Positions 19,829 through 36,553 of a DNA stretch of 64,000 nucleotides are shown piece by piece (position 1 is the stretch's first letter; the number at the start of each line of letters is the position of its first letter). Source of the DNA: an uncultured delta proteobacterium (GTDB lineage: Bacteria > Desulfobacterota > Desulfobacteria > Desulfobacterales > B30-G6); the NCBI GenBank assembly GCA_963823335.1, contig CAWGLD010000004.1, positions 192,001-256,000 of the forward strand. The letters run 5' to 3'. Under the pieces are notes generated by a model that was not told the DNA's origin, did no database searches, and saw only the letters and a list, made by a program, of their open reading frames with translations. The translations under genes were made by a program, and so were the position numbers.

Positions 19829-21547
19829 CTAAGAAACGATCATGTCCTGAATCCCGCCACCTGCCGGTACCATGGGCAGAACAATTTCACTGGGATCGCA
19901 CAAAAATTCCACCATGTAGGCGCCTTTGTAATCGGCGGCTGTCTCGAGTGCTTCGAATATCTTATCCGGTTCCGATACCCTCTGATAGGGTATGCCATAA
20001 GCCTTGGCAATGCCCCCGAAATCAGGGTTTTTCATGGGTGTCCCGGCATAACGGCCATCGTAAAACATGGTTTGCCACTGCCGTACCATGCCCAGGTAAC
20101 CGTTGTTCATCAGCAGGATCTTGACATCGATGCCATGCTCCATAACAGCGCCCAGCTCCTGAATGTTCATCTGGAATCCACCGTCACCGCTGACAGACCA
20201 CACCCGCTCATCCGGGCGGGCCAACTTGACACCCAGGGCCATGGGTAATGCGCATCCCATGGTGCCGGCTCCACCGGATGTAAACCAGCTGTTCGGGGTC
20301 TGGAAATTGTAAAACCGCGCCAATATCATCTGGTGCTGACCGACATCCGAAACAATGATATCTTTACCCAGGGTCACCTGGGACAGTTTCGAAACGATGC
20401 TCTTCATTAACAACTGGCCTTCTTTACCGATAGCAGCGTCGATCTCTTTCTGCATGTCCGCTGCAATTTCAGATCGATAGCCATCGATCTGCTCGAACCA
20501 GGGCCGCCGAGGCATTGTCACAATTGCGTGTTCTCTGGCCAGCAGCTTCAGCGTCTCACCAATATCGGCATTGATCGACAGCGTTGTCTTCACATTTTTG
20601 TCGATTTCAGAGGGATCTATTTCGACGTGGATTACGCGGGCATCTACGGCAAACAGATCGAGGTTGCCGGTAACCCTGTCGTCAAAACGCATGCCGAAAG
20701 AGATAATGAGATCGGCGTTCAGCAACGCACGGTTAGCCTCTACCGTGCCGTGCATGCCGACCATACCCAGACTCAGGGAATGGTCCACCGGGATCGCCGA
20801 AAGTCCGTGCAGGGTAAATGCCACCGGGATACAGGCTTTTTCAGCAAACTGTCTAAGCCACGCCCCCGCATTGGTGGTGACAACACCGTGCCCGCAAAGG
20901 ATAATCGGTCTTTCGCTTTGATTGACCATGTTTACTGCCGTTTGGATCTTGGCTTTTTCGGGCGTCGGCGAATAAATAAAACCCGGAAGCTTCGGCTCAT
21001 AGGTCCGGGGATCAAAATGATACGCTGCATCTGTTTCCCGGGCCTGGATATCCTTGGGAATGTCCACAACCACTGGTCCGCCACGACCGGTCTGGGCCAC
21101 ATACATTGCCTCGTGGATGGTTTCTTCGATTTCATTCACGGACAAGGGCATGTAAGTCTGCTTGGTCAGCGGCATCATCACACCCACCACGTCACTTTCC
21201 TGGAAAGCGTCGGAAGCGATCACCCCGGTGGCAACCTGGCCTGTAATCGCCAGCAGGGGCACGGAATCCATGCCGGCGTCGGCAATCCCGGTCACAAGAT
21301 TCATGGCCCCGGGACCCGATGTTGCCATGCACACGCCGGTACGGGGGTGGGAGGTGCCTATGGATGCACGTGAAATACCCTGGGCCATGAAAGCCGCGCC
21401 CTGTTCATGACGCGACATGATGAACGTGAAACATTTCTGCTTCTCCATTTCGTCAAATATGGGCATGATGGCACCACCGGTATAACCGAAAATATATTTG
21501 ACACCCTTGTCTCTCAGGGCCTTGAGCACCAGTTCCGAACCTTTCAT
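19829..21547 (-). CDS. ilvB: acetolactate synthase large subunit
   Basis: RHEQGA, TSGPGAMN, RFDDRVTG, GDGGFQMN, LGMVRQWQ. Confidence 0.97.
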   Translation of the reverse strand: MKGSELVLKALRDKGVKYIFGYTGGAIMPIFDEMEKQKCFTFIMSRHEQGAAFMAQGISRASIGTSHPRTGVCMATSGPGAMNLVTGIADAGMDSVPLLAITGQVATGVIASDAFQESDVVGVMMPLTKQTYMPLSVNEIEETIHEAMYVAQTGRGGPVVVDIPKDIQARETDAAYHFDPRTYEPKLPGFIYSPTPEKAKIQTAVNMVNQSERPIILCGHGVVTTNAGAWLRQFAEKACIPVAFTLHGLSAIPVDHSLSLGMVGMHGTVEANRALLNADLIISFGMRFDDRVTGNLDLFAVDARVIHVEIDPSEIDKNVKTTLSINADIGETLKLLAREHAIVTMPRRPWFEQIDGYRSEIAADMQKEIDAAIGKEGQLLMKSIVSKLSQVTLGKDIIVSDVGQHQMILARFYNFQTPNSWFTSGGAGTMGCALPMALGVKLARPDERVWSVSGDGGFQMNIQELGAVMEHGIDVKILLMNNGYLGMVRQWQTMFYDGRYAGTPMKNPDFGGIAKAYGIPYQRVSEPDKIFEALETAADYKGAYMVEFLCDPSEIVLPMVPAGGGIQDMIVS

Positions 21548-21672
21548 GATCTGTCGTATCCTCCCTTAAAAGGTACCCGACCCTGTTGGCAGGGGCCAGG
21601 TCTGATAATTCGATCCATCAGGGTTGACTTACTCCTTTTTGGTTACCATTTTATGCATGTTCAAACAACACA

Positions 21673-21802
21673 GTCAACTACCACCCGTGAAACGGGTGGC
21701 TTGCCTTTCCCCCAAAATGGGGGAAAGACAAAGGAAACGGCATGTATCAGTAAGTTCAGGTTCGGAACCGCGTGACGAGCACGCGGTTTGTAGAACAATC
21801 AA
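21673..21802 (+). mobile_element. ~130-bp structured element beginning GTCAACTACC and ending TCAA
   Basis: Hairpins ccacccgt-gaa-acgggtgg, ttccccc-aaaat-gggggaa, aaccgcgtg-acgag-cacgcggtt; second copy at 12322-12450. Confidence 0.75.
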
Positions 21803-21825
21803 CCTTAATACCGAAAAGAGTCAGC

Positions 21826-23238
21826 ATGGGAAAAACACTGTTCGAAAAAATCTGGAACAAACACAGGGTAAAGGAACTGCCGGATGGGTCGACCTTGATG
21901 TATATCGACCGTCATCTCGTCCACGAGGTTACCAGCCCCCAGGCCTTTGAGGGCATGCGACTTACAGGCCGCAGTGCCCGCTCGCCGCATCTGGCCTTTG
22001 CCACCATGGATCACAACGTTGCCACAACCGAGGATCGTTTCAACATTGAAGACCCGGTGTCCAGAAACCAGGTAGAGGCGCTCAGAAAAAACTGCGCTGA
22101 TTTTGGAATCAAACTTTTTGATATCGGTGATGACCACCAAGGCATCGTACATGTTATCGGACCTGAGATGGGAATCACACTTCCGGGATTCACCATCGTC
22201 TGCGGCGACTCCCACACATCAACTCACGGTGCCTTCGGCGCACTGGCCTTTGGTATCGGAACCTCTGAAGTTGAGCATGTCCTGGTAACACAGACACTGG
22301 TGCAACGCAAGCCCGGTACATTTAAAGTCGAGTTCAGCGGCCGTCTTGCACCGCATGTGTTTTCAAAAGACATGGTGCTGAAAATGATCGGCACCATTGG
22401 TACCGCCGGCGGATCCGGCTCTGTGATGGAATTCTGCGGTGAGGCGGTAAGCGCACTTTCCATGGAAGCACGCATGACCATGTGCAACATGAGCATCGAG
22501 GCCGGTGCCCGCGCCGGCATGATTGCCCCGGATGATACCACCTTCGCCTATATCACCAGCGGGGAACGCCCCTATGCACCCCGGGGAGAGAAGCTTGATC
22601 GCGCCCTGGCTTACTGGCGCACCCTCCCCAGTGATGCAGATGCAGTCTTCGACCGATCCCTTACCATCGATGTCGCCCGTATTGTACCTCAGGTTACCTG
22701 GGGAACCAACCCGGGAATGGTCATCGACATCGATCAACCCGTGCCTGAACCGGGTTATGCAGAGGGTTACAGCCGATCGGATGTAGAAAATGCTTTGGAC
22801 TATATGGGTCTGAAACCAGGCCTCAAAATGACCGAAGTTCCTGTGGACGTTGTCTTTATCGGCAGTTGCACCAACTCGCGTATTGAAGACCTGAGACAGG
22901 CTGCAAGCATACTGAATGGCCGGAAAAAAGCCGAGCATGTCGAACTGCTGGTGGTGCCCGGCTCACACCAGGTCCGCCTCCAGGCGGAGGCCGAAGGGCT
23001 GGACAAGATTTTTAAATCCGCCGGTGCCCAGTGGCGCCATGCAGGGTGCAGCATGTGCCTGGCCATGAACCCTGATCAACTAAAACCCCGACAGCGTGCA
23101 GCCTCCACATCAAACCGGAATTTCGAGGGTCGCCAGGGAAAAGACGGCCGTACACATCTGGTCAGCCCGGAAATGGCCGCCGCTGCAGCCGTAGCCGGCA
23201 GATTTGTTGATATCCGCCAATGGAAGGAATCATCATGA
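21826..23238 (+). CDS. leuC: 3-isopropylmalate dehydratase large subunit
   Basis: [48 protein letters not shown]. Confidence 0.98.
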
Positions 23239-23870
23239 AACCATTCACTACCCACACCGGCATTGTGGCCACACTCAACCGGGCCAATGTCGATACCGAT
23301 GCCATCATCCCCAAACAATTTCTAAAGTCCATCAAACGCACGGGTTATGGACCAAATGCTTTTTTCGACTGGCGCTATACCTCCGCCGGTGAATCCAACC
23401 CGGAATTTGAACTCAACCAGGAGCGTTTCAAAGGACGTTCCATCCTGGTGACCCGCAACAACTTTGGATGTGGCTCCAGCCGTGAGCATGCAGTCTGGGC
23501 GCTGGTCCAAGACGGCTATCGGGCGATCATCGCCCCGGTGAAAAAAATTGGAGAAAAAACGATACCGGCCTTTGCCGACATCTTTCGAATCAACGCCGCC
23601 AAGAACGGATTGCTGGTCATCGAATTGTCGGAGGATCAGGTGGATGAAATTTTTGGGCTTGTCGAGACGCACAGCGGCTTGAAAGCCACGCTAGATCTGA
23701 TGCAACAGCAATTTGTATTGCAGGCGGATCCAGCGCAAAAATTCAAATTTAAAATCGAACCCGGCACCAAAGAGCAGTTACTCAAAGGCATGGATGATAT
23801 TGCGCAGACACTGCAGTATGAAACCGACATCGCCCGATTTGAAGAAAGTCACGATCCCCTGGGGCCGTAA
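23235..23870 (+). CDS. leuD: 3-isopropylmalate dehydratase small subunit
   Basis: [25 protein letters not shown]. Confidence 0.97.
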
Positions 23871-23872
23871 AA

Positions 23873-24345
23873 CGAATGAACGTCGAACATCCAACGTCCA
23901 ACATCGAATGATGAATATGAACTTAGCCTCCACCCGCAGAGCGGGTGGCTCAAGATACCCCTCGAAGGAGGCTATATAGAGGTTGTCAGAAAAACGTTCC
24001 GATTGAGGACCTTTTTTCTGCTACAACCCCTTATGCAGCTATCCTATTTTCAGAACATTATTATGACAAGCGGTATAATATCCAATGTCGAATATCGATT
24101 ACATGAATTTCGAAGTAATAGTTCCCAGCTTACAGAACAAAGGAAGATAGAGCGCAGCGATACAATACTTCATTATTCTACATTCCTTGTTCGACATTCG
24201 ATATTTTCCTTTTTTAATTTTCATCGGAGTTGATCCTTTTATGCTGTGGCGCCAGGATCCCAGAAAGCCTGGATGCTACTGTCCGCTGATTCCTGTCAGC
24301 CACCCTCCAACCCTTGTATCACCCTTGCACCCTTGAACCCTCAAT
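23873..24345. repeat. compound repeat region between leuD and ilvD (7-mer and 8-mer arrays with inserted elements)
   Basis: gaacgtcgaacatccaacgtccaacatcgaat...; ttgttcgacattcgatatt; ccttgcacccttgaaccct; small palindrome agcctcc...ggaggct at about 23924-23973. Confidence 0.7.
23975..24077. mobile_element. ~100-bp MITE with TATA ends (IS630-like)
   Basis: TATAGAGGTTGTCA...TGACAAGCGGTATA; copy of 12217-12318. Confidence 0.65.
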
Positions 24346-26025
24346 TTACTCGTCGGTAACACATCCATCCGAAGCGGATTTCACATTCTTGATATATTTG
24401 TACAGCGTGCCCCGGTTCACCTTGTAGGGCGGTGCAGTCCATGCCTTGCGTCGGGTCGTGAGCTCTTTCTCGCTCAGATCAACGCTGATACTGTTACGGG
24501 CCGCATCGATTCTGATTTTGTCCCCATTGCACACCAACGCGACAGGGCCGCCCACCTGGGCTTCGGGTGTAATGTGACCAACGATAAATCCGTGTGATCC
24601 GCCGGAGAAGCGGCCGTCGGTCAGCAGGGCCACATGGTTTCCAAGACCGGCCCCCATGATGGCCGACGTGGGGGTCAGCATTTCCGGCATGCCCGGTCCG
24701 CCCTTAGGTCCTTCGTAGCGAATGATGATCACATCACCTTTTTTTATCTGGTTTTTCTGCAACGCCGCCAGCATCTGTTCTTCTGAATCAAAAACATTGG
24801 CCGGCCCGGTGAATGTGACACCTTCCTTACCGGTGATCTTGCCTACGGCGCCTTCCGGTGCCAGATTCCCCCTTAAAATCTGAATGTGCCCTCTTTTGTG
24901 AATCGGCCGCTCCAAGGTGCTGATGACCTTCTGCTCTTTGACCAGCCCCGCAGCGTCCTCCAGGTTTTCGGCCAGGGTTTTGCAAGTAACCGTCAGGCAG
25001 TCCCCGTGCAACATTCCTTTCCCAAGCAGATATTTCATCAGGGCGGGAATACCGCCCACATCGTCCAGATCTTCCTGCATATAACTGCCACTGGGTTTCA
25101 TATCAGCCAGCAACGGCACACGGTCACTGACGCGCTGGAAGTCGTCAATGCCCAAGTCAACCGACACGGCTCGCGCCATGGCAATCAAATGCAGTACAGC
25201 ATTGGTCGATCCCCCCAGGGCGGAGATGACGACCATGGCGTTTTCAAAAGCTTGACGGGTCATTATATCCCTGGGTTTGATATCTTTTTCCAGCAATCGC
25301 CGGATGGCCGTCCCAGCCTGGGCACACTCATCGATTTTATGCCGTGATTCAGCTGGACGACTGGCGCTGTAGGGCAGCGACATCCCCATGGCCTCAATCG
25401 CGGATGCCATGGTGTTGGCGGTGTACATACCCCCGCAGGCACCGGCACCCGGGCAGCTGTTCTTTACGATTGATTGGCGCTGTTGCTCGTCGATGGCGCC
25501 GCTGATAAACTGGCCATAACTTTGAAAAGCGGAAACGATGTCCACTTTTTGGTTTTCAAACAGTCCGGTCCTGATGGTGCCGCCATAGACCATCAACGCC
25601 GGTCTGTTCACCCGGCCCATGGCGATCAGACAACCCGGCATGTTCTTGTCACAACCCGGAAGGGCAATGTTGGCATCATACCACTGGGCATGCATGACCG
25701 TTTCAATGGAGTCGGCAATCAGGTCCCGCGACTGTAATGAGTAACTCATGCCCTCGGTCCCCATGGATATGCCGTCACTGACCCCGATGGTATTGAACCG
25801 CAGCCCCACTAGATCGGCCGCTTCTACACTTTCCTTGACTTTTGCGGACAGCTCATTGAGATGCATATTGCAAGGATTGCCTTCGTACCATACACTGCTG
25901 ATCCCAACCTGTGCTTTGGTCATGTCGGCATCGGTCAATCCAACGCCGTACAGCATGGCCTGAGACGCACCCTGTGACTTGGGTTCCGTAATACGTGAAC
26001 TGTATTTGTTCAATTTGTTAACCAT
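24346..26025 (-). CDS. ilvD: dihydroxy-acid dehydratase
   Basis: [40 protein letters not shown]. Confidence 0.97.
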
Positions 26026-26046
26026 TTGATACTATCCTTTATTTTG

Positions 26047-26153
26047 ATAGTTCTCAGCTTATGGAACAAAAGAAGATAGAGCGCAGCGATACAACACGTC
26101 AATATTCTACATTCCTTGTTCGATATTCATTATTCTCTTTTATTTTCACCGGA
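26047..26153 (+). repeat. ~105-bp direct repeat, partner at about 24118-24227, bracketing ilvD
   Basis: Shared atagttcYcagctta..gaacaaaRgaagatagagcgcagcgatacaa...tattctacattccttgttcga. Confidence 0.8.
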
Positions 26154-26301
26154 TCGGTAAATCAGAATAAGCTGGGTTTCCCTCAAACCCTGGACTCCTT
26201 GAATCCTTGAACCCTTTATTTTTTTGGTTCTTCTCCAATTTAGTTGGAGGAAAGGGCTCCAAAATTCGGGTCAAGAGAAATACAGCTCGGGCTATATCTT
26301 A

Positions 26302-26335
26302 TCGAAATCGCTATCGGGATCGGGATCGGGATCGA
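26302..26335 (+). repeat. TCGGGA hexamer array, 3' arm of the inverted repeat around the four-helix-bundle gene
   Basis: TCGAAA TCGCTA TCGGGA TCGGGA TCGGGA TCGA. Confidence 0.9.
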
Positions 26336-26336
26336 A

Positions 26337-26452
26337 TTGAAGAGTACCCTGCAGCAAGCTGCAGGGAATCTTCGCGGTAAGGATTTTATCTATTTGATTC
26401 GCTCGCTAACCCCGCAGCAAGCTACGGGGAATGCGCTCGCTATTGCCGTTCA
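26337..26452 (-). mobile_element. IS200/IS605-like palindromic element inserted in the 3' end of the four-helix-bundle gene
   Basis: Hairpins ccctgcagc-aa-gctgcaggg and ccccgcagc-aa-gctacgggg. Removing it restores the reading frame ...YGYTE-FDPDPDPDSDFDKI*. Confidence 0.8.
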
Positions 26453-26835
26453 GTATAGCCGTATTCCCCGAACCCTTCCTTTACGCTATAACCCCTGCCG
26501 CCCAATCGACTAAGCATTGCAGCAATGCGGTCCAATTCACCTTTGCGCTGCCGGCTTTCTACTTTATCCAAACCTTTTCCGACTACCAAGACATCTTGGA
26601 TTGCGGCACACTCCAATGCCGACCCACGCGCTATTTCGAAATATCGCCGCCGATCAGCCTTCGCTGTCTTACCGTTGCCTTCTGCAATATTAAGCGCAAT
26701 CGACTGGCTGGCTCGAAGCCACTGGTCTCTTGCTGAACGATGGACGCCTCTCAGCCTGGCACACTTTTCATAAACCCATGCGACATAGCCGATTGAAAGG
26801 CGGTAAACGTCTAATTTTTCATGACCTAATACCAT
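26440..26835 (-). CDS. four helix bundle protein (23S rRNA intervening-sequence family)
   Basis: MVLGHEKLDVY, DQWLRASQSIALNIAEGNG, YFEIARGSALEC. Confidence 0.92.
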   Translation of the reverse strand: MVLGHEKLDVYRLSIGYVAWVYEKCARLRGVHRSARDQWLRASQSIALNIAEGNGKTAKADRRRYFEIARGSALECAAIQDVLVVGKGLDKVESRQRKGELDRIAAMLSRLGGRGYSVKEGFGEYGYTERQ

Positions 26836-26836
26836 C

Positions 26837-26870
26837 TCGATCCCGATCCCGATAGCGATCCCGATTTCGA
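26837..26870 (-). repeat. TCGGGA hexamer array, 5' arm immediately before the start codon
   Basis: Minus strand reads TCGAAA TCGGGA TCGCTA TCGGGA TCGGGA TCGA, then G ATG. Confidence 0.9.
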
Positions 26871-26931
26871 CAAGGCTTCCACCAACAGCATTTCTACAAC
26901 AAATCGGGAGAAAAGCCATTTTTTTCAACTC

Positions 26932-27970
26932 TTATTGTTTTTCAAAGTCCTCAAAACGTTCCTCCGTCAGGGGGTGTGTGGACAAATAATTGATCCATTT
27001 TTCAGATGCCCTATCTGAAGCACCTGGCTTCCGGTTTTCGATCCTGCGCATTAACGAAGCAAAGCGAACCGGTAATATTCCATTGCTGCGCATGGCAGTC
27101 AAGGCATATGTGTCCGCCTCACTTTCGAATTTCCTGGAATATGCCAGTTCCGTCAACAGAACCGGCAAACCAAGAAACAGTTCCGATGACCCGGACACAT
27201 CCCCTGTCATGGCCAATAGAACAAATCCCAGAAGTGAGTCCTGGATCAATGTTCGCATACCATGCCGGTGGACAATATGCCCTGTTTCATGGAGCAGGAC
27301 GGCCGAGAGTTCATCGTCATGTTCGGCGATCTGAATCATTTCATCTGTAAACACGATGACGCCGCTGGGCAGGGCAAATGCATTGGGACCAGATTTCCCC
27401 ACCTTTTCTGAACACGATCTCCAACCCATGACCTGAGTGTGCCTCCAGCAGTGGCTGAAAGTGTTCCACCAGTCTCTTGCGGCTTATTTGATCCAGTTCC
27501 GTCGATTGAAAAATAGATCGATCCAGGATATCAAGTGTCTGATTGCTGGCAAAACGCAGCATGGAAGAAGGGAGTCTGTAGGCAATCGTTTTGGCAACCC
27601 AGGGAATCCCGTGGGACATACCAGCCCAGAGGATAAAAAGCAGCATAGCCAGGGCAAGCAGTACATAGCGCCAGTGACTCTCCAGTTTGTATAGAACCTC
27701 ACGCCACGTCGCTTTTGCAAATCGGGTCTCTATCCGGTCGACAGTCTCATTGTCGGCGGTCTCGAACTTTTCACCCCGGGGAAAAAGAAGATAACGCTGT
27801 GTATTGGCCAGTCTTGGAGATATCTCAATGTCAAAAAGCGGCCGGGTCAAAATCAGAACACCATCGCCTACCCGTTCGATGCGAAGGGCGCCGTTATCGT
27901 AAACGATGCACACAACATCTTCTGCGGCCGATGTTTTCCCATTATACCATTTGCCCTCGATAGAAATCAT
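26932..27970 (-). pseudogene. M48 family metallopeptidase with a one-base frameshift near 27391
   Basis: Frame 1 ends ...FRKGGEI; frame 2 continues GPNAFALPSG...HETGH...STHP. One extra T in GAAATC-T-GGTCCC. Confidence 0.8.
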
Positions 27971-29331
27971 AGACCAAAATCCATATCAAAAAAATCACCC
28001 ACCTCTTCACCAATGGCACTCACCTGCCGTTCCTCGTCGTCAATAAAACCCGCGAGGTCTCCGGAAGCCAGCAAGGCCATATGCTGAAATTTGTATTGAA
28101 CGGTTCTGACCTTTGCAAAGGGAAAGAACAGTCCCAGCGTAACCGCGACACCCAGGGAGTTGGTCAACACGAGCCTCATGTATTCGCCTGTTTTCAACCC
28201 GGCCTCAAACCGGTGATGGGACAGGCTGCTGGTGTTGAATAATAGATTGGTGGTTTTCACTGAAAAGTAAGCCAACAGGTAAAGGTAAAAAACCAGAAAT
28301 ACCAGGGCGGAAACAGGCGGCAGGAAAAAGGCGCCTAGTGTTATGAGGACAATGCCCATAAGAATCGGAACGAGGGCACCAAAATAGATTCGATAATATT
28401 CCCGTGCCGTTGCAGTATAGACAAAAGCGGTTCTACCATAAACGGTGTTTTCGACAATAAATTTCTTCTGACGAAAATAGACATAAGGAAAAAGAGCACC
28501 CAGGGTCAGGGTTGCTGCCAGCGGCCACAGAATGTATGCCTTTGCGGCGCCCATGATACTTCCCTTGAAACCGAATCGAACATTTCGAAAGGCACTGTTG
28601 CGCGAATTAAACACAAGCGACCGGACGATCAACCAGGGAAGAATCAGAATAAAAGCCAGACTCATGATACCGGAAACAAGCGGAAGCAAAGCAGACAACA
28701 CCGAGTAAAGAATAAAAAAGCCGACAACGATAAGGCGGCCTTTGAGAATCTTTACAGGATCGGCAAGATATTCAAAGCTGCTCCCAGAAAGCGTCGTATT
28801 CCCATAAAAATACCGTTTGCGTCTCACCTTGGCCCAGGCCGAGTAGATGCCGAGGGTGATGACCGACAATATAATGTTCACAAGCCAGATTTTAAAGTAT
28901 TCCGACCCCTTACCGCTGAATTCAAAGGGCACTCTGGAAAGCGCATCGCCACCCTGTTCAGATACCTGGTGGGCATCCCCCTCTTCCCCTGGAAGTGTCT
29001 GGTCTTTCATGGTCACATTTTCAGGGGGTTCAACGTCTTTCTCTGCACTTCCCCCAGCAGGAGGTATGGGCGGCACTTCTGTGGAACCGGGTTCTTTTTT
29101 GCTTCTGGTCAAGGTGACTTCCATCCCTATCTGTCTCAGGGCAGTTTCAAACTTTTTAGCGGAAATATCATCCGTGTTCTTTTTCAACGCTATTCCGCTG
29201 CTCTTGAGTATTTTCACGGCCTTTTCTTCACTGATTGAAAAAACCGCCATCAGTTTCGATTTTACGTCATCGATATTAAAACCCGGCCTAATTTTTCCAC
29301 GATAAACAACATCATAGCGTGCAGGTGTCAT
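27967..29331 (-). CDS. yjgN: YjgN / DUF898 membrane protein with N-terminal extension
   Basis: FEFSGKGSEYFKIWLVN, TLGIYSAWAKVR; usual pairing with an M48 peptidase. Confidence 0.88.
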   Translation of the reverse strand: MTPARYDVVYRGKIRPGFNIDDVKSKLMAVFSISEEKAVKILKSSGIALKKNTDDISAKKFETALRQIGMEVTLTRSKKEPGSTEVPPIPPAGGSAEKDVEPPENVTMKDQTLPGEEGDAHQVSEQGGDALSRVPFEFSGKGSEYFKIWLVNIILSVITLGIYSAWAKVRRKRYFYGNTTLSGSSFEYLADPVKILKGRLIVVGFFILYSVLSALLPLVSGIMSLAFILILPWLIVRSLVFNSRNSAFRNVRFGFKGSIMGAAKAYILWPLAATLTLGALFPYVYFRQKKFIVENTVYGRTAFVYTATAREYYRIYFGALVPILMGIVLITLGAFFLPPVSALVFLVFYLYLLAYFSVKTTNLLFNTSSLSHHRFEAGLKTGEYMRLVLTNSLGVAVTLGLFFPFAKVRTVQYKFQHMALLASGDLAGFIDDEERQVSAIGEEVGDFFDMDFGL

Positions 29332-29518
29332 GCCCCCTCCTCTCAGTATTCTGAACAAGATTGAACGGGTGAGATATCCTATGGATTGATCTATACCCCT
29401 TAACAGGGTCTCAGAACATAATCCAACATAATAAGCGCGTCGAAACTAAAAATATCACCCAAATATACATGACAGGAAAAACATGAACATCTCATCAAAG
29501 ACAGCCAACACGTGGTAG

Positions 29519-29611
29519 ATAGCTAAAGCCATAAGCTGTAAACTCTAAGCTGCTTACCGGCTATAGCTGATTGCCGACTCTTGCTGATTGCCGACAATTA
29601 ACTGATAGCTT
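29519..29611. repeat. degenerate 7-mer (AGCT-core) arrays
   Basis: agctaaagccataagctgtaaactctaagctg...ctatagctgattgccgac...ctgatagct. Similar tracts at about 36477, 38480 and 56697. Confidence 0.55.
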
Positions 29612-29619
29612 TAACCCAG
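29605..29619 (+). promoter_or_regulatory. degenerate regulon box (11/15 match) upstream of peptide 1
   Basis: ATAGCTTTAACCCAG, then 24 nt, then TTGATA at 29644. Confidence 0.55.
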
Positions 29620-29717
29620 TATAAAACCCCGATTCTGCTCTTATTGATATATGTTGGCCGATGCATATATTGTTTCTAAGCAAAAGATAATCATAACCAA
29701 CAAAAGGAGATACGGCC

Positions 29718-29855
29718 ATGACGAATACAACTGATTATGTCGAAAATGAAAAAGAAAGAGAAGAAGGACATGTCGACACCCGCAGCAAAAACTTTGAATG
29801 CGAAGACAAAGACCCCAACTTAGGGTGTGACCCGGGAATCGATGTTGCAGGATAA
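29718..29855 (+). CDS. 45-aa acidic C-x8-C peptide, copy 1 (not in the ORF track)
   Basis: MTNTTDYVENEKEREEGHVDTRSKNFECEDKDPNLGCDPGIDVAG; RBS AAGGAG; paralog at 36671. Confidence 0.88.
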   Translation: MTNTTDYVENEKEREEGHVDTRSKNFECEDKDPNLGCDPGIDVAG

Positions 29856-29900
29856 CCCAATCAACCCCATTGCCAAACCACCATTAATTCTGATTTAAGA

Positions 29901-29930
29901 CAAGGCAGGCCGCCATCCGGTCCTGCCTTG
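29901..29930 (+). terminator. hairpin after peptide 1
   Basis: caaggcagg...cctgccttg; weak U-tract. Confidence 0.55.
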
Positions 29931-30001
29931 CTAATTTCAATTTTTGATCAGCTTTTACTATTCAGGGCTCACCACGTTGAAAACCTAAACAGGAGGTCCT
30001 A

Positions 30002-30673
30002 ATGAAAAAAGTTAGTTTTTTTAAATGGAAAAGATCATCCGTGGTGGCAGTACTCAGTGCAATCTGCATCTTTTTTTTTACAACGGGCTGTTCTTTTTTC
30101 GGTATCCGAAACACCGAAGAAGCCGGCTATGCGGTTATCGATAAACGTGACCAGATCGAGATCCGGGAGTACGATGCGCTTGTGGCCGTTGAGACATTTG
30201 TGAACACCGGCTATGGGGAAGCCGGCACTATCGCTTTTAAGAAACTCTTTGCCTACATATCCGGTGAGAATATTTCAAAGACAAAGATTGCCATGACGGC
30301 ACCGGTTATCTCAAAAGAAGGGGATGCGCCGACAGGAGATAAAATTCCCATGACGAGCCCCGTTCTTGGGCAACGGCAAGCCAAGGGCTGGAGATATAGC
30401 TTCTTGCTCCCGGCAGGCTACACACTTGAGAATGCACCGTTTCCGTCTAATCCTGAAGTCAAACTCGCGGTGATACCGAGAAAAAAAGTCGCGGTGATAC
30501 GCTACTCGGGATCCTGGAAAGAGCAAACAATGCGCGAGAAATCCGAAAAACTCGTCGAATGGATCCAGGCCAATGGCCTCGAGCGCCTTTCAAGCCCTCG
30601 TTCCGCGCGATATGATCCCCCTTGGACGCTTCCGTTTTTACGTCGTAACGAGATCATGATCGACGTCAATTAG
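30002..30673 (+). CDS. SOUL heme-binding lipoprotein
   Basis: Lipobox-like TTGC, AFKKLFAYISGEN, KIAMTAPV, YDPPWTLPFLRRNEI. Confidence 0.92.
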   Translation: MKKVSFFKWKRSSVVAVLSAICIFFFTTGCSFFGIRNTEEAGYAVIDKRDQIEIREYDALVAVETFVNTGYGEAGTIAFKKLFAYISGENISKTKIAMTAPVISKEGDAPTGDKIPMTSPVLGQRQAKGWRYSFLLPAGYTLENAPFPSNPEVKLAVIPRKKVAVIRYSGSWKEQTMREKSEKLVEWIQANGLERLSSPRSARYDPPWTLPFLRRNEIMIDVN

Positions 30674-30818
30674 CTGCTTGACCAAGAGGTCATTAAATAC
30701 CAATACCATGGCTGCCAAAGCGAACTGCAATGGTTAGCATATTCCCAGGGGCGGGTCGACTATCCCAGTTAACCGGGCTGAGCGGGTTCTTCGGTACACA
30801 TTATCCAACGGGGTGATT

Positions 30819-31943
30819 ATGGGCAAGCCAGTAAAAGGGTTTATGATCGCAACGTTTCTCATTGTTGCACTGGTCTTTATTGAATCACAGTCATTGGCAG
30901 CAGAATTGTCGGTGCGCTTGGAGAACCCCCCACCCGGAGGGAACGTTCAGTTTGTATTGTTCGATTCGGCCAATACCTTCGGTGACCTTCGGGATCCGGT
31001 GAAGGTTGTGAAACTACCACTTGACGGACGTGAACGCTACCGTGTCACAGATGTCCCCCCCGGTGAGTACGCTCTCTTGGTTTACTTCGATGAAAACAAC
31101 AATGATCGACTGGACAGGAACTTCATCGGTATCCCGAAAGAACCACTGGGCTTTGCAAACCGTTACCAACCCAAAGGCCCGCCGAGCTATCAGCGTGCGG
31201 CCTTTATTTTACGTAAAGGGGAGTCACGTACCATCGACGTAGAGCTCCGCCGCCCCCTGGGAAAGCGTGGCCGCCTGGGTGTTGGCTTGGGTGTTATCGC
31301 TCAAACGAGTCCCTATCGCGATGTCACCGGCGGCGTTTATCGTGCTATCCCGGCGGTTGTCTACACGGGTGAGCGCTTGCAAATTTATGGGCCCAGAATC
31401 CAGATCGGTCTTGCCGGCAATGAAAATCTGCGTCTTGCCGCAACGGGCCGCTATCGATTTGGAACCTACGAGGAAAATGAGAGTGATTTTCTCAGGGGTA
31501 TGGGCGACAGAAAAGACACGTTCATGGCTGGTCTGGCCCTTAATGTCGAACTTCCTGGTGGAGTGAATCTTTCAACCGGGTACGCGCATGACACCCTGGG
31601 CAAGATTGGCGGGGGAGAAGGCAATATCAAAATTGACAAGTCATTCCAAATGGGTGTTTTCAGGTTCTCACCACAAATCGGGCTAAACTGGCTCAGTTCG
31701 AAGGTTGCCAACAACGATTTCGGTGTGCCAACCCGCAAGGCCACCCCAGACCGCCCTGCCTATGAACTCGATTCAATAGTCAATGTGGAGAGTGGCGTCG
31801 GGATGTTCATCGAGGTTACCCGTGACTGGCTGGTCATCTTGAACACAAGTATAGAATTTTTCGACAAAGATGTCATCGACAGCCCTATTGTCAGCGAAGA
31901 ATATATTGTCAAGGGATTGGCTGTCATTAATTATGTGTTTTGA
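30819..31943 (+). CDS. DUF2141 + MipA/OmpV outer-membrane protein fusion
   Basis: DENNNDRLDRNFIGIPKEPLGF (DUF2141-like), then a beta-barrel ending in YVF. Confidence 0.82.
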   Translation: MGKPVKGFMIATFLIVALVFIESQSLAAELSVRLENPPPGGNVQFVLFDSANTFGDLRDPVKVVKLPLDGRERYRVTDVPPGEYALLVYFDENNNDRLDRNFIGIPKEPLGFANRYQPKGPPSYQRAAFILRKGESRTIDVELRRPLGKRGRLGVGLGVIAQTSPYRDVTGGVYRAIPAVVYTGERLQIYGPRIQIGLAGNENLRLAATGRYRFGTYEENESDFLRGMGDRKDTFMAGLALNVELPGGVNLSTGYAHDTLGKIGGGEGNIKIDKSFQMGVFRFSPQIGLNWLSSKVANNDFGVPTRKATPDRPAYELDSIVNVESGVGMFIEVTRDWLVILNTSIEFFDKDVIDSPIVSEEYIVKGLAVINYVF

Positions 31944-32131
31944 TAAAAAGATAACCACTCCTTTTCTTTCTCGATATCAGTATTATAGTCTGAATGTATT
32001 GGTTACCAGCTGTAAAAAAAATGTTCTGCATAATCTCTTGGTAAAAAAGGATCCCATGGGGACATTGTTTTGACAATCACTGAAAACATGGTGATCATCT
32101 GATCATACAGGTCACTCGAAAGGAGGTTCAA

Positions 32132-32506
32132 ATGGAGCTCAAAGAATACTTTGAAAACACGGAAGGCAAAGGCGTCATGGCCACGGCAGACAGCAACGGC
32201 AAGGTGGATACGGCCATATACGCCCGGCCGCATGTCATGGATGATGGAACCATTGCCATGATCATGCGTGATCGACTCACCCATCATAATCTTGAATCCA
32301 ATTCACATGCCTGCTACATGTTTATAGAAAAAGGCCCCGGCTACAAAGGCAAGCGCCTCTTCTTGACCAAAGTGCGCGAGGAGCAGGATTCCGAATTGCT
32401 GCAGTCCCTGCGACGGCGGCAATATATCGACAAAAAGGATGCGTCTAAGTTTCTGGTATTTTTCCAGGTCGACAAAGAGCTGCCCTTGGTGGGCACCGGG
32501 AAGTAG
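32132..32506 (+). CDS. pyridoxamine 5'-phosphate oxidase family (split-barrel flavin-binding) protein
   Basis: VMATADSNGKVDTAIYARP, HHNLESN; RBS AAGGAGG. Confidence 0.8.
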   Translation: MELKEYFENTEGKGVMATADSNGKVDTAIYARPHVMDDGTIAMIMRDRLTHHNLESNSHACYMFIEKGPGYKGKRLFLTKVREEQDSELLQSLRRRQYIDKKDASKFLVFFQVDKELPLVGTGK

Positions 32507-32744
32507 ATATCCGGTTCCAGAGGGCCCGGCACTGATTCAACCCTGTAAAGGTTAATGTTACCCACATTCATCGTGTGATAAATTCTAAATCCGAGGGCCC
32601 TACCCCTGCGGGCGGGATCTTCATTTGGATCCGTCAGGCGAGGTTTGGGGGTCGTTTCGGCAAGTCATGGGAAACGCACTTGCTATTACAGTTTTGGTTA
32701 CCTACAATAGGACTTCGTCCTGAACCCATACGGATAGCGTTTCT

Positions 32745-33197
32745 ATGAAAGCAAATGAGCAGTTTCGAAAAAGAGTGGCAGAATTGTTCCGTACGCAAAA
32801 CCTGGCAACCTTGTCCACCCAGCATGCAGGGCAACCCTATGCCAGCCTGGTGGCATTCGTTGCCAGCGATGACTTGGATCGGATTTACTTCGCAACGCCA
32901 ACGACCACACGTAAATATGCAAATTTGGTCGCTGACAGTCGCGTGGCCATGCTAATCAACAGCAGTATGAACCAGACATCTGATTTTCATCGGGCTATTT
33001 CGGTGACAGCGGTGGGCAAGGCAAAAGATGTCACCGGAAAAGATAAAAAACGCATCCTGGAGCGGTACCTGGCCAAACACCCCCATCTGGAAGATTTTGT
33101 GCATTCGCCAACGTGTGCCATGGTACAGGTTTCGATTACCAGCTATTACATGGTGAAAAATTTCCAGAATGTAACGGAGCTGCACCTAAACTCATGA
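32745..33197 (+). CDS. pyridoxamine 5'-phosphate oxidase family protein
   Basis: LATLST..GQPYASLVAF, TRKYANL, YLAKHPHL. Confidence 0.85.
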   Translation: MKANEQFRKRVAELFRTQNLATLSTQHAGQPYASLVAFVASDDLDRIYFATPTTTRKYANLVADSRVAMLINSSMNQTSDFHRAISVTAVGKAKDVTGKDKKRILERYLAKHPHLEDFVHSPTCAMVQVSITSYYMVKNFQNVTELHLNS

Positions 33198-36428: not shown

Positions 36429-36553
36429 AGGGTCCGAGGGTGAAAGGGTTTGAGGGTTCGAGGGTATGAGGGTGCCATAAGCCGTAAGCTGTAAAAGAGC
36501 AAAAGCCTGCAAACGATAGCTTTTTCCTTGAACCCTTGGATCCTGGAATCCTT
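36429..36553. repeat. inverted 8-mer arrays enclosing 7-mer arrays
   Basis: AGGGTCCG AGGGTGAA AGGGTTTG AGGGTTCG AGGGTATG AGGGTGCC ... ccttgaacccttggatcctggaatcctt. Confidence 0.8.

Follow-up and report, generated by a model that had tools for sequence, protein, structure and literature searches.

The unit inserted between an M48 peptidase gene and ilvD in this sediment bacterium is very probably a transposase-less element of 692 bp whose ends are of the ISL3 type and whose AT-rich target site is duplicated over 8 bp. The element carries a conserved, repeat-armed gene around the genome as cargo, and the hexamer repeats that enclose this gene are a property of the gene family and not the ends of the mobile unit. 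A PF05635 gene with its arms as the cargo of ISL3 ends is new, while non-autonomous ISL3 derivatives and ORF-bearing rRNA intervening sequences are both known. Coordinates refer to the window, the whole 64,000-nucleotide stretch of DNA that was analysed, which belongs to a genome of 4.37 Mb and 94% completeness (Table 1).

Table 1. Features of the element, its cargo and the adjoining host genes, in window coordinates
Feature	Position	Strand	Basis or remark
ilvD, host gene downstream of the element, same strand as the cassette gene	24346-26025	minus	TIGR00110 above cut-off
8-bp target site duplication, downstream copy	26218-26225	plus	comparison of the ends of the copies
Non-autonomous ISL3-type element (mobile insertion cassette), whole, 692 bp	26226-26917	minus	five genome copies with different flanks; empty-site contig
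Right terminal inverted repeat	26226-26246	plus	15-18/21 identical to the ends of complete ISL3 elements L230, L254 and L285
3' hexamer arm	26302-26335	plus	encodes an (Asp-x)n tail in insert-free copies
112-bp two-palindrome repeat, REP/PATE-like family, later insertion	26337-26448	.	missing from the copy on C7 and from the copies in relatives
PF05635/TIGR02436 four-helix-bundle gene, 131 aa	26440-26835	minus	acidic (Asp-x)n tail truncated by the insert
5' hexamer arm	26837-26870	minus	one base before the ATG; ribosome-binding region within the arm
Left terminal inverted repeat (GG... end)	26897-26917	minus	15-19/21 identical to the ends of complete ISL3 elements L230, L254 and L285
8-bp target site duplication, upstream copy	26918-26925	plus	comparison of the ends of the copies
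M48 peptidase, host gene upstream of the element, same strand	26932-27970	minus	PF23368 and PF01435

Results

The 692-bp element and its insertion site

The element is present at five sites in the genome, in copies that are 98.5–100% identical and have different flanks. When the five copies are aligned, identity passes beyond the hexamer arms and stops sharply at imperfect inverted GG ends, and each copy is flanked by an 8-bp AT-rich duplication of its own target site (four found by script, that of the copy on contig C7 by inspection). No transposase gene lies inside. The ends and the duplication, which lie beyond the arms by 47 bp on one side and 76 bp on the other, were overlooked in the original prediction, which had proposed that the gene plus its arms may be a mobile unit. 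The mobility stands, but the arms are not its boundary, as the insertion is bounded by the ISL3-type ends and the 8-bp duplication.

Empty sites between the two host genes, which the original prediction had pointed to as a check, do occur. In three relatives (G004, G006 and G007) the gap between ilvD and the M48 gene measures only 90–150 bp and holds other small repeats in place of the cassette, and the locus is thus not stably syntenic across relatives. One contig of run X15 jumps from 26219 to 26919, a distance that is essentially the element plus one target copy. In one contig of RNA run X16, position 26918 is linked back to 26229 across 7 intervening letters. Circular intermediates with abutted ends are typical of ISL3, and the joint is a weak hint of an end-to-end circle that fits a tandem copy equally well. 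The contigs of the RNA runs X15 and X16 hold small shares only and are silent on expression and RNA ends; those of X16 cover the element but not the M48 flank. The gap in two of the relatives (L210 in G007, L200 in G006) holds remnants resembling ISL3 ends together with palindromic repeats, and in view of these remnants the site looks like an insertion hotspot.

The surroundings are repeat-rich. A 98-nt repeat, 87% identical between its copies, flanks ilvD on both sides (24118-24215 and 26047-26144) and has further near-identical copies in this genome and in G005; the copy at 24118-24215 lies near 7-mer arrays like those that flank another PF05635 gene (L018). Gene-less 8-mer tandem arrays of a second cassette family (see below) are found at 26190-26217, 24320-24341 and 36445-36553, one of which adjoins the right end of the 692-bp element. 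A search of positions 20000-33000 against Rfam returned a single chance match (E 0.44). The M48 gene is split over two frames here, with one base absent at 27391 in the contigs of three runs, and the frame break may for this reason be an assembly error or private to the strain.

ISL3 relatives and a putative helper

Scanning metagenomes for the end pattern gave 122 stretches, 80 of which were retrieved with their flanks, and among these were complete elements of 1267–1347 bp. Two of them, L230 and L254, code for an ISL3 transposase (Pfam DDE_Tnp_ISL3, E near 1e-69), and a third, L285, for a frameshifted one; 8-bp duplications flank L254 and L285 and not L230. The ends of the three match those of the window element at 15–19 of 21 positions. 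Candidates for a helper are limited to these metagenome contigs. An ISL3 transposase was found neither in this genome, at 94% completeness, nor in five genomes rich in such ends, whose assemblies are incomplete, and mobilisation in trans by an ISL3 transposase is therefore only inferred. No matching ends are seen at ISL3 loci in genomes of the same family, and among 28 order-level loci with the end pattern there is no element above 490 bp bounded by a target duplication. IS1595 and IS1 were rejected: the genome has two IS1595 copies, one with different ends and the other with none detected, and no IS1.

The same ISL3-type ends carry a second cassette family with a different PF05635 gene, 8-mer arms and deleted derivatives. 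Members lie in G000 at C2:127685-128173 and C1:412354-412912 and at about ten more positions, with internally deleted versions of 194–436 bp. Of 69 ends of this type for which 500 nt or more of inward sequence is available, 23 have a PF05635 match within 650 nt inward. A further ISL3-type end (L291) is followed about 220–650 nt inward by an ORF that, from its sequence motif, is presumably PIN/VapC-like.

The vehicle thus joins a known kind, the ISL3-derived non-autonomous elements, as a new member. With ISL3-family MITEs and mobile insertion cassettes it shares inverted GG ends like those of complete ISL3 elements, the 8-bp AT-rich duplication, many copies, internally deleted derivatives and the lack of an internal transposase. 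Unlike ISL3-family MITEs, it has as its cargo an Avd-like gene with repeat arms of its own, two different PF05635 clades have been captured by the same ends, and no helper was found in this assembly.

The cargo: arms, insert and protein

The arms have precisely the sequences and spacing that the original prediction gave them, the 5' array ending one base ahead of the ATG. They span 38 nt with 87% complementarity, the longest uninterrupted helix being 22 bp with zero G:U pairs, and their predicted duplex energy is −61.7 kcal/mol; the fold of the region has a z of −4.56 against 20 shuffles. Ten hexamer arrays exist in the 4.37-Mb genome, all of them forming the five inverted pairs around copies of the cassette gene, and none in three shuffled genomes.

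The 112-bp palindromic repeat removes the acidic tail of the protein. As had been claimed, deleting it makes the 3' arm coding (reading ...FDPDPDPDSDFDKI*), and this insert-free state occurs naturally in the element copy on C7, in which an arm is one hexamer longer. Because neither the C7 copy nor the copies in relatives contain the repeat, it is a later insertion, which entered ahead of the 3' arm, and the insert-bearing version then spread to four sites. The genome holds 14 near-full-length matches to the repeat family and 90 matches overall; we take its ends to resemble those of non-autonomous IS200/IS605 derivatives.

Profile searches place the product of the cassette gene in PF05635 (E 1.3e-18) and TIGR02436 (E 3.4e-17), with scores well above the curated cut-offs (67.6 versus 33.8 bits and 62.6 versus 24 bits), in agreement with the family first assigned to it. 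Outside rRNA, this genome alone has 20 PF05635 matches. The family is large, has solved structures and no known function, and was named after its members in rRNA inserts. The model of the protein has four helices (pLDDT 86.7); the core is net basic, the tail, in copies that keep it, is acidic, and the protein has no catalytic domain. Its structure matches 2GSC (TM 0.78, E 3.7e-5), 2RLD and, less closely, Avd of the diversity-generating retroelements (4DWL; TM 0.68, E 0.09, 8% identity), which supports the Avd-like fold that had been proposed, if at a weaker level than the match to 2GSC. A homopentameric state is assumed here from 2GSC. The cassette protein has the four-helix bundle and the net basic core in common with Avd, Xcc0516 (2GSC) and BT_0352 (2RLD), and unlike these three it has an arm-encoded acidic (Asp-x)n tail. 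Unlike the diversity-generating retroelements, the locus has no reverse transcriptase and no template or variable repeat near the gene, the neighbours being ilvD and the M48 gene. PMC10053308 describes PF05635 as resembling Avd.

Arms across the gene family

The homologues compared were the best 80 of 516 homologous stretches in GTDB genomes, at 57–98% identity and from more than 10 named bacterial groups. For the 76 loci of this hexamer clade with both flanks, out of the best 80 of 516, there is a 5' array in 63, a 3' array in 70 and an inverted pair of arms in 60, set against 200 control windows with no forward array and 4 reverse ones. The layout recurs in other PF05635 clades with units of 6–9 nt: an inverted pair scoring at least 30 was found in 31 of 39 rows (29 phylum-sample loci and 10 rows from this genome, two of the rows being one gene; in one row a transposon end contributes to the score) versus 0 of 78 controls. 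Inverted short-period arrays are thus carried by homologues generally, a point that the original prediction had proposed as a check. One exception in G000 (L011/L017, C4:64095-64838) has two tandem PF05635 genes without inverted arms. Another locus (L022, C5 about 498200-498490) has inverted 10-mer-like arms that enclose only a palindromic insert and no PF05635 match, so other small gene families may have the arm layout as well. Viral contigs gave one match to the arm pattern, which is apparently fortuitous and lies within a coding region.

Purifying selection acts on the gene (pN 0.155 versus pS 0.79 in 55 ungapped homologues). In 55 of 70 loci the 3' arm is translated as (Asp-x)n, another 13 stop ahead of the arm and 2 use a different frame; the shared frame may be explained by shared descent. 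The arms could in principle be functionless by-products, with slippage building the repeats, template switching keeping them complementary and selection acting only on the protein and its acidic tail. The free variation in unit number, as in the extra hexamer of C7, the prevalence of coding 3' arms and the lack of a G:U bias (see below) are all in keeping with such an origin. It is nonetheless very improbable, as the non-coding 5' arm is kept in 63 of 76 loci while synonymous sites are near saturation, and the layout is the same in clades with different units and non-coding 3' arms.

Whether the repeat unit follows the protein depends on the distance considered. Within the hexamer clade unit type tracks the protein (Mantel r 0.70), while across distant clades it does not (r 0.06, p 0.19). 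In the other clades a locus's own arms pair better with each other than with the arm of the nearest protein relative (31 versus 7 of 38); in the hexamer clade they do not (37 versus 27 of 71, p 0.26). With own arms best matched and tracking absent across clades, the repeat unit appears from these comparisons to be replaced more quickly than the protein, with the two sides changing in step. Such coordinated turnover speaks more for selection on pairing, or for a copying process, than for strict recognition of a sequence.

These results bear on the idea that the gene plus its arms is a self-contained mobile or processed unit whose protein recognises its own repeat sequence, which we now consider unlikely. 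The idea accords with the constancy with which the gene is accompanied by arms, with the tracking inside the hexamer clade, and with copies that are free-standing, with neither ISL3 nor attC ends (L026 and L027). The preprint on Avd (10.1101/2023.10.23.563531) describes a relative that binds stem-loops beside the template RNA, a further point in its favour. At the window locus, however, the boundaries of the insertion are the ISL3 ends, and no back-junction at the arms is found among the joints listed. The protein has no catalytic domain, and a motif scan of the best 80 of 516 loci found no credible reverse transcriptase, with one doubtful match. The specific claim that the protein binds its own repeat is weakened by the lack of arm–protein tracking across clades, though such tracking is present inside the hexamer clade.

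Vehicles of the module vary. A strict attC-type hairpin follows the ORF in 5 of 77 homologues versus 0 of 77 reverse-strand controls, 4 of the 5 have a matching 5' core site, and about eight further homologues have an attC-like appearance by eye. Close homologues packaged in attC-type integron cassettes have the hexamer arms inside (L068:2933-2994, L070:2924-2982, L073:2933-2994, L074 and L103), and, counted per genome, 2 of the 5 genomes with such copies have integron integrases above cut-off. An attC-type hairpin end and a matching core site at the start are what this minority of close homologues has in common with integron gene cassettes; unlike these, the window element has no attC-like site. 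None of the collected loci matches 23S rRNA, and the single 23S match of this genome is elsewhere and not at the window locus. Going by the literature, the 23S rRNA intervening sequence is another vehicle of the PF05635 module (PMC4990558). On the evidence of sequence comparison, the four-helix-bundle gene with its inverted short-repeat arms is evidently an older module that is spread over more than 10 bacterial groups and keeps its arms whatever the vehicle, be it ISL3 ends, an attC cassette or a free-standing copy.

An apparent exchange between the arms

In one relative (G007) a single host locus is found on two contigs (L024 and L049) with the same host site and transposon frame. In 60-column blocks the flanks and the frame are mostly 97–100% identical, while the interior, arm to arm, is only 65–83% identical. 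From the alignment it looks like a diverged homologue took the place of the ORF, the breakpoints on either side falling in the arms. The case stands alone, the genome has 7% contamination and a chimera is possible; no donor of the ORF was found among 301 genomes.

Discussion

The combined observations are best described as three nested layers: an ISL3-ended element, an older gene-plus-arms cargo and a later 112-bp repeat. In the explanation that is proposed, which as a whole we hold to be probable, the cassette would be transcribed from host promoters, and the 3' arm, once transcribed, would fold back so as to cover the start codon and the 5' arm. Translation would thereby stop and an RNase III-type stem would form, making the gene a passenger of low output that closes itself. 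Its protein, probably pentameric and basic apart from an acidic tail, would bind RNA stems as Avd does, by their shape and not by the repeat sequence, and the arms might additionally serve as boundaries where the ORF gets replaced or deleted.

The RNA fold-back role of the arms, drawn by analogy with Coxiella's intervening sequence (IVS), is the less secure part and has something just under an even chance of being correct. In the predicted fold of the full transcript the start region is unpaired with a probability of only 0.07–0.08, compared with 0.34–0.44 in the first 250 nt, and a start that is more open early and paired later fits a shut-off of translation by fold-back. According to PMC4990558, in the Coxiella IVS the S23p start is preceded by heptamer repeats, located where RNase III cleaves a 28-bp stem, and this cleavage takes away the ribosome-binding site. 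The cargo resembles the intervening sequence described there in its Pfam family, in a terminal stem that loops out the ORF (predicted here) and in short tandem repeats directly upstream of the start codon. Unlike that sequence, the window cassette is located outside rRNA and has a hexamer and not a heptamer, and the purifying selection on its gene is a further difference. The likeness to an rRNA intervening sequence is therefore one of layout, and the defining rRNA location is lacking.

The main rival of the RNA role is a role at the DNA level, in which the arms act as a single-strand hairpin or as recombination boundaries for exchange, deletion and capture of the ORF by other vehicles, and RNA folding is incidental. 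attC cassettes likewise fold as single-stranded DNA, and the duplicate locus in G007, with its diverged interior inside a near-identical frame, is what exchange between arms would leave. Arm-to-arm joints in the sequencing runs also bear on the question: splicing was rejected as their explanation, since the joints have foreign letters between them and occur in a DNA run as well, and they are gene-less arm pairs at other loci, whose presence in DNA runs is in keeping with a DNA-level role. An excess of G:U pairs on the sense strand, a bias toward the transcript, was not found, with counts of 37 versus 44 and 33 versus 29 in the strict alignment and of 71 versus 102 (against a sense excess) and 71 versus 49 in the tolerant one. 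Duplex energy favours the sense strand slightly (34 versus 20 of 58). Neither G:U asymmetry nor sense-versus-antisense duplex energy was discriminating. Weighing against the DNA-level role is the swap itself, as a single case from a contaminated genome with no donor. In the other clades the upstream neighbour is, moreover, co-oriented with the gene in 26 of 27 callable loci versus 49 of 76 in the background (p 0.0009), which together with the Coxiella precedent favours RNA; in the hexamer clade co-orientation (33 of 44) does not differ from the background (p 0.31). These neighbour strands come from a crude longest-ORF rule that left about a third of the loci uncallable. A function of the arms in DNA with RNA folding as a side effect is thus rather unlikely, though a boundary role in DNA and a fold-back role in RNA are compatible.

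Beyond this locus, short tandem arrays have been reported as unexplained features of other genomes. GGGAATC heptamer arrays in Xanthomonas form convergent pairs, with 70 cases in Xcc (PMC4692102), and TAACTGA heptamer arrays are among the unexplained short tandem repeats of the Beggiatoaceae (PMC4679880). What these have in common with the arms described here, going by those two articles, are short tandem arrays that often form convergent pairs or end one base ahead of a start codon. The main texts of both contain neither 'helix bundle' nor 'intervening', and the PF05635 family is not named in them. No description of a family-wide gene-plus-arms layout was found among the main texts searched in open-access PMC and bioRxiv. 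A broader view can be put forward tentatively, as a possibility with the balance against it. The PF05635 gene and its inverted arms would be an undescribed, widespread class of selfish cassette, in which an Avd-like pentamer acts on the fold-back RNA, or the single-stranded DNA, of the cassette itself and favours capture or exchange from arm to arm. States of one and the same element would then include the intervening sequences of 23S rRNA, the copies borne by attC cassettes and by ISL3 ends and the 6–9-nt arrays that lack an explanation in many bacteria, with Avd of diversity-generating retroelements as a domesticated relative.

What this locus adds is a module that travels on ISL3 ends and has close relatives inside attC cassettes, with an ORF that may be exchangeable between the arms. 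The copies of the element also supply natural variants with and without the acidic tail (the C7 form and the window form, respectively). If the arms are the constant partner of the gene, they could be used directly as the substrate in binding and RNase III assays on a family whose structures are solved, and would be a candidate source of both the rRNA intervening sequences and the unexplained heptamer repeats.
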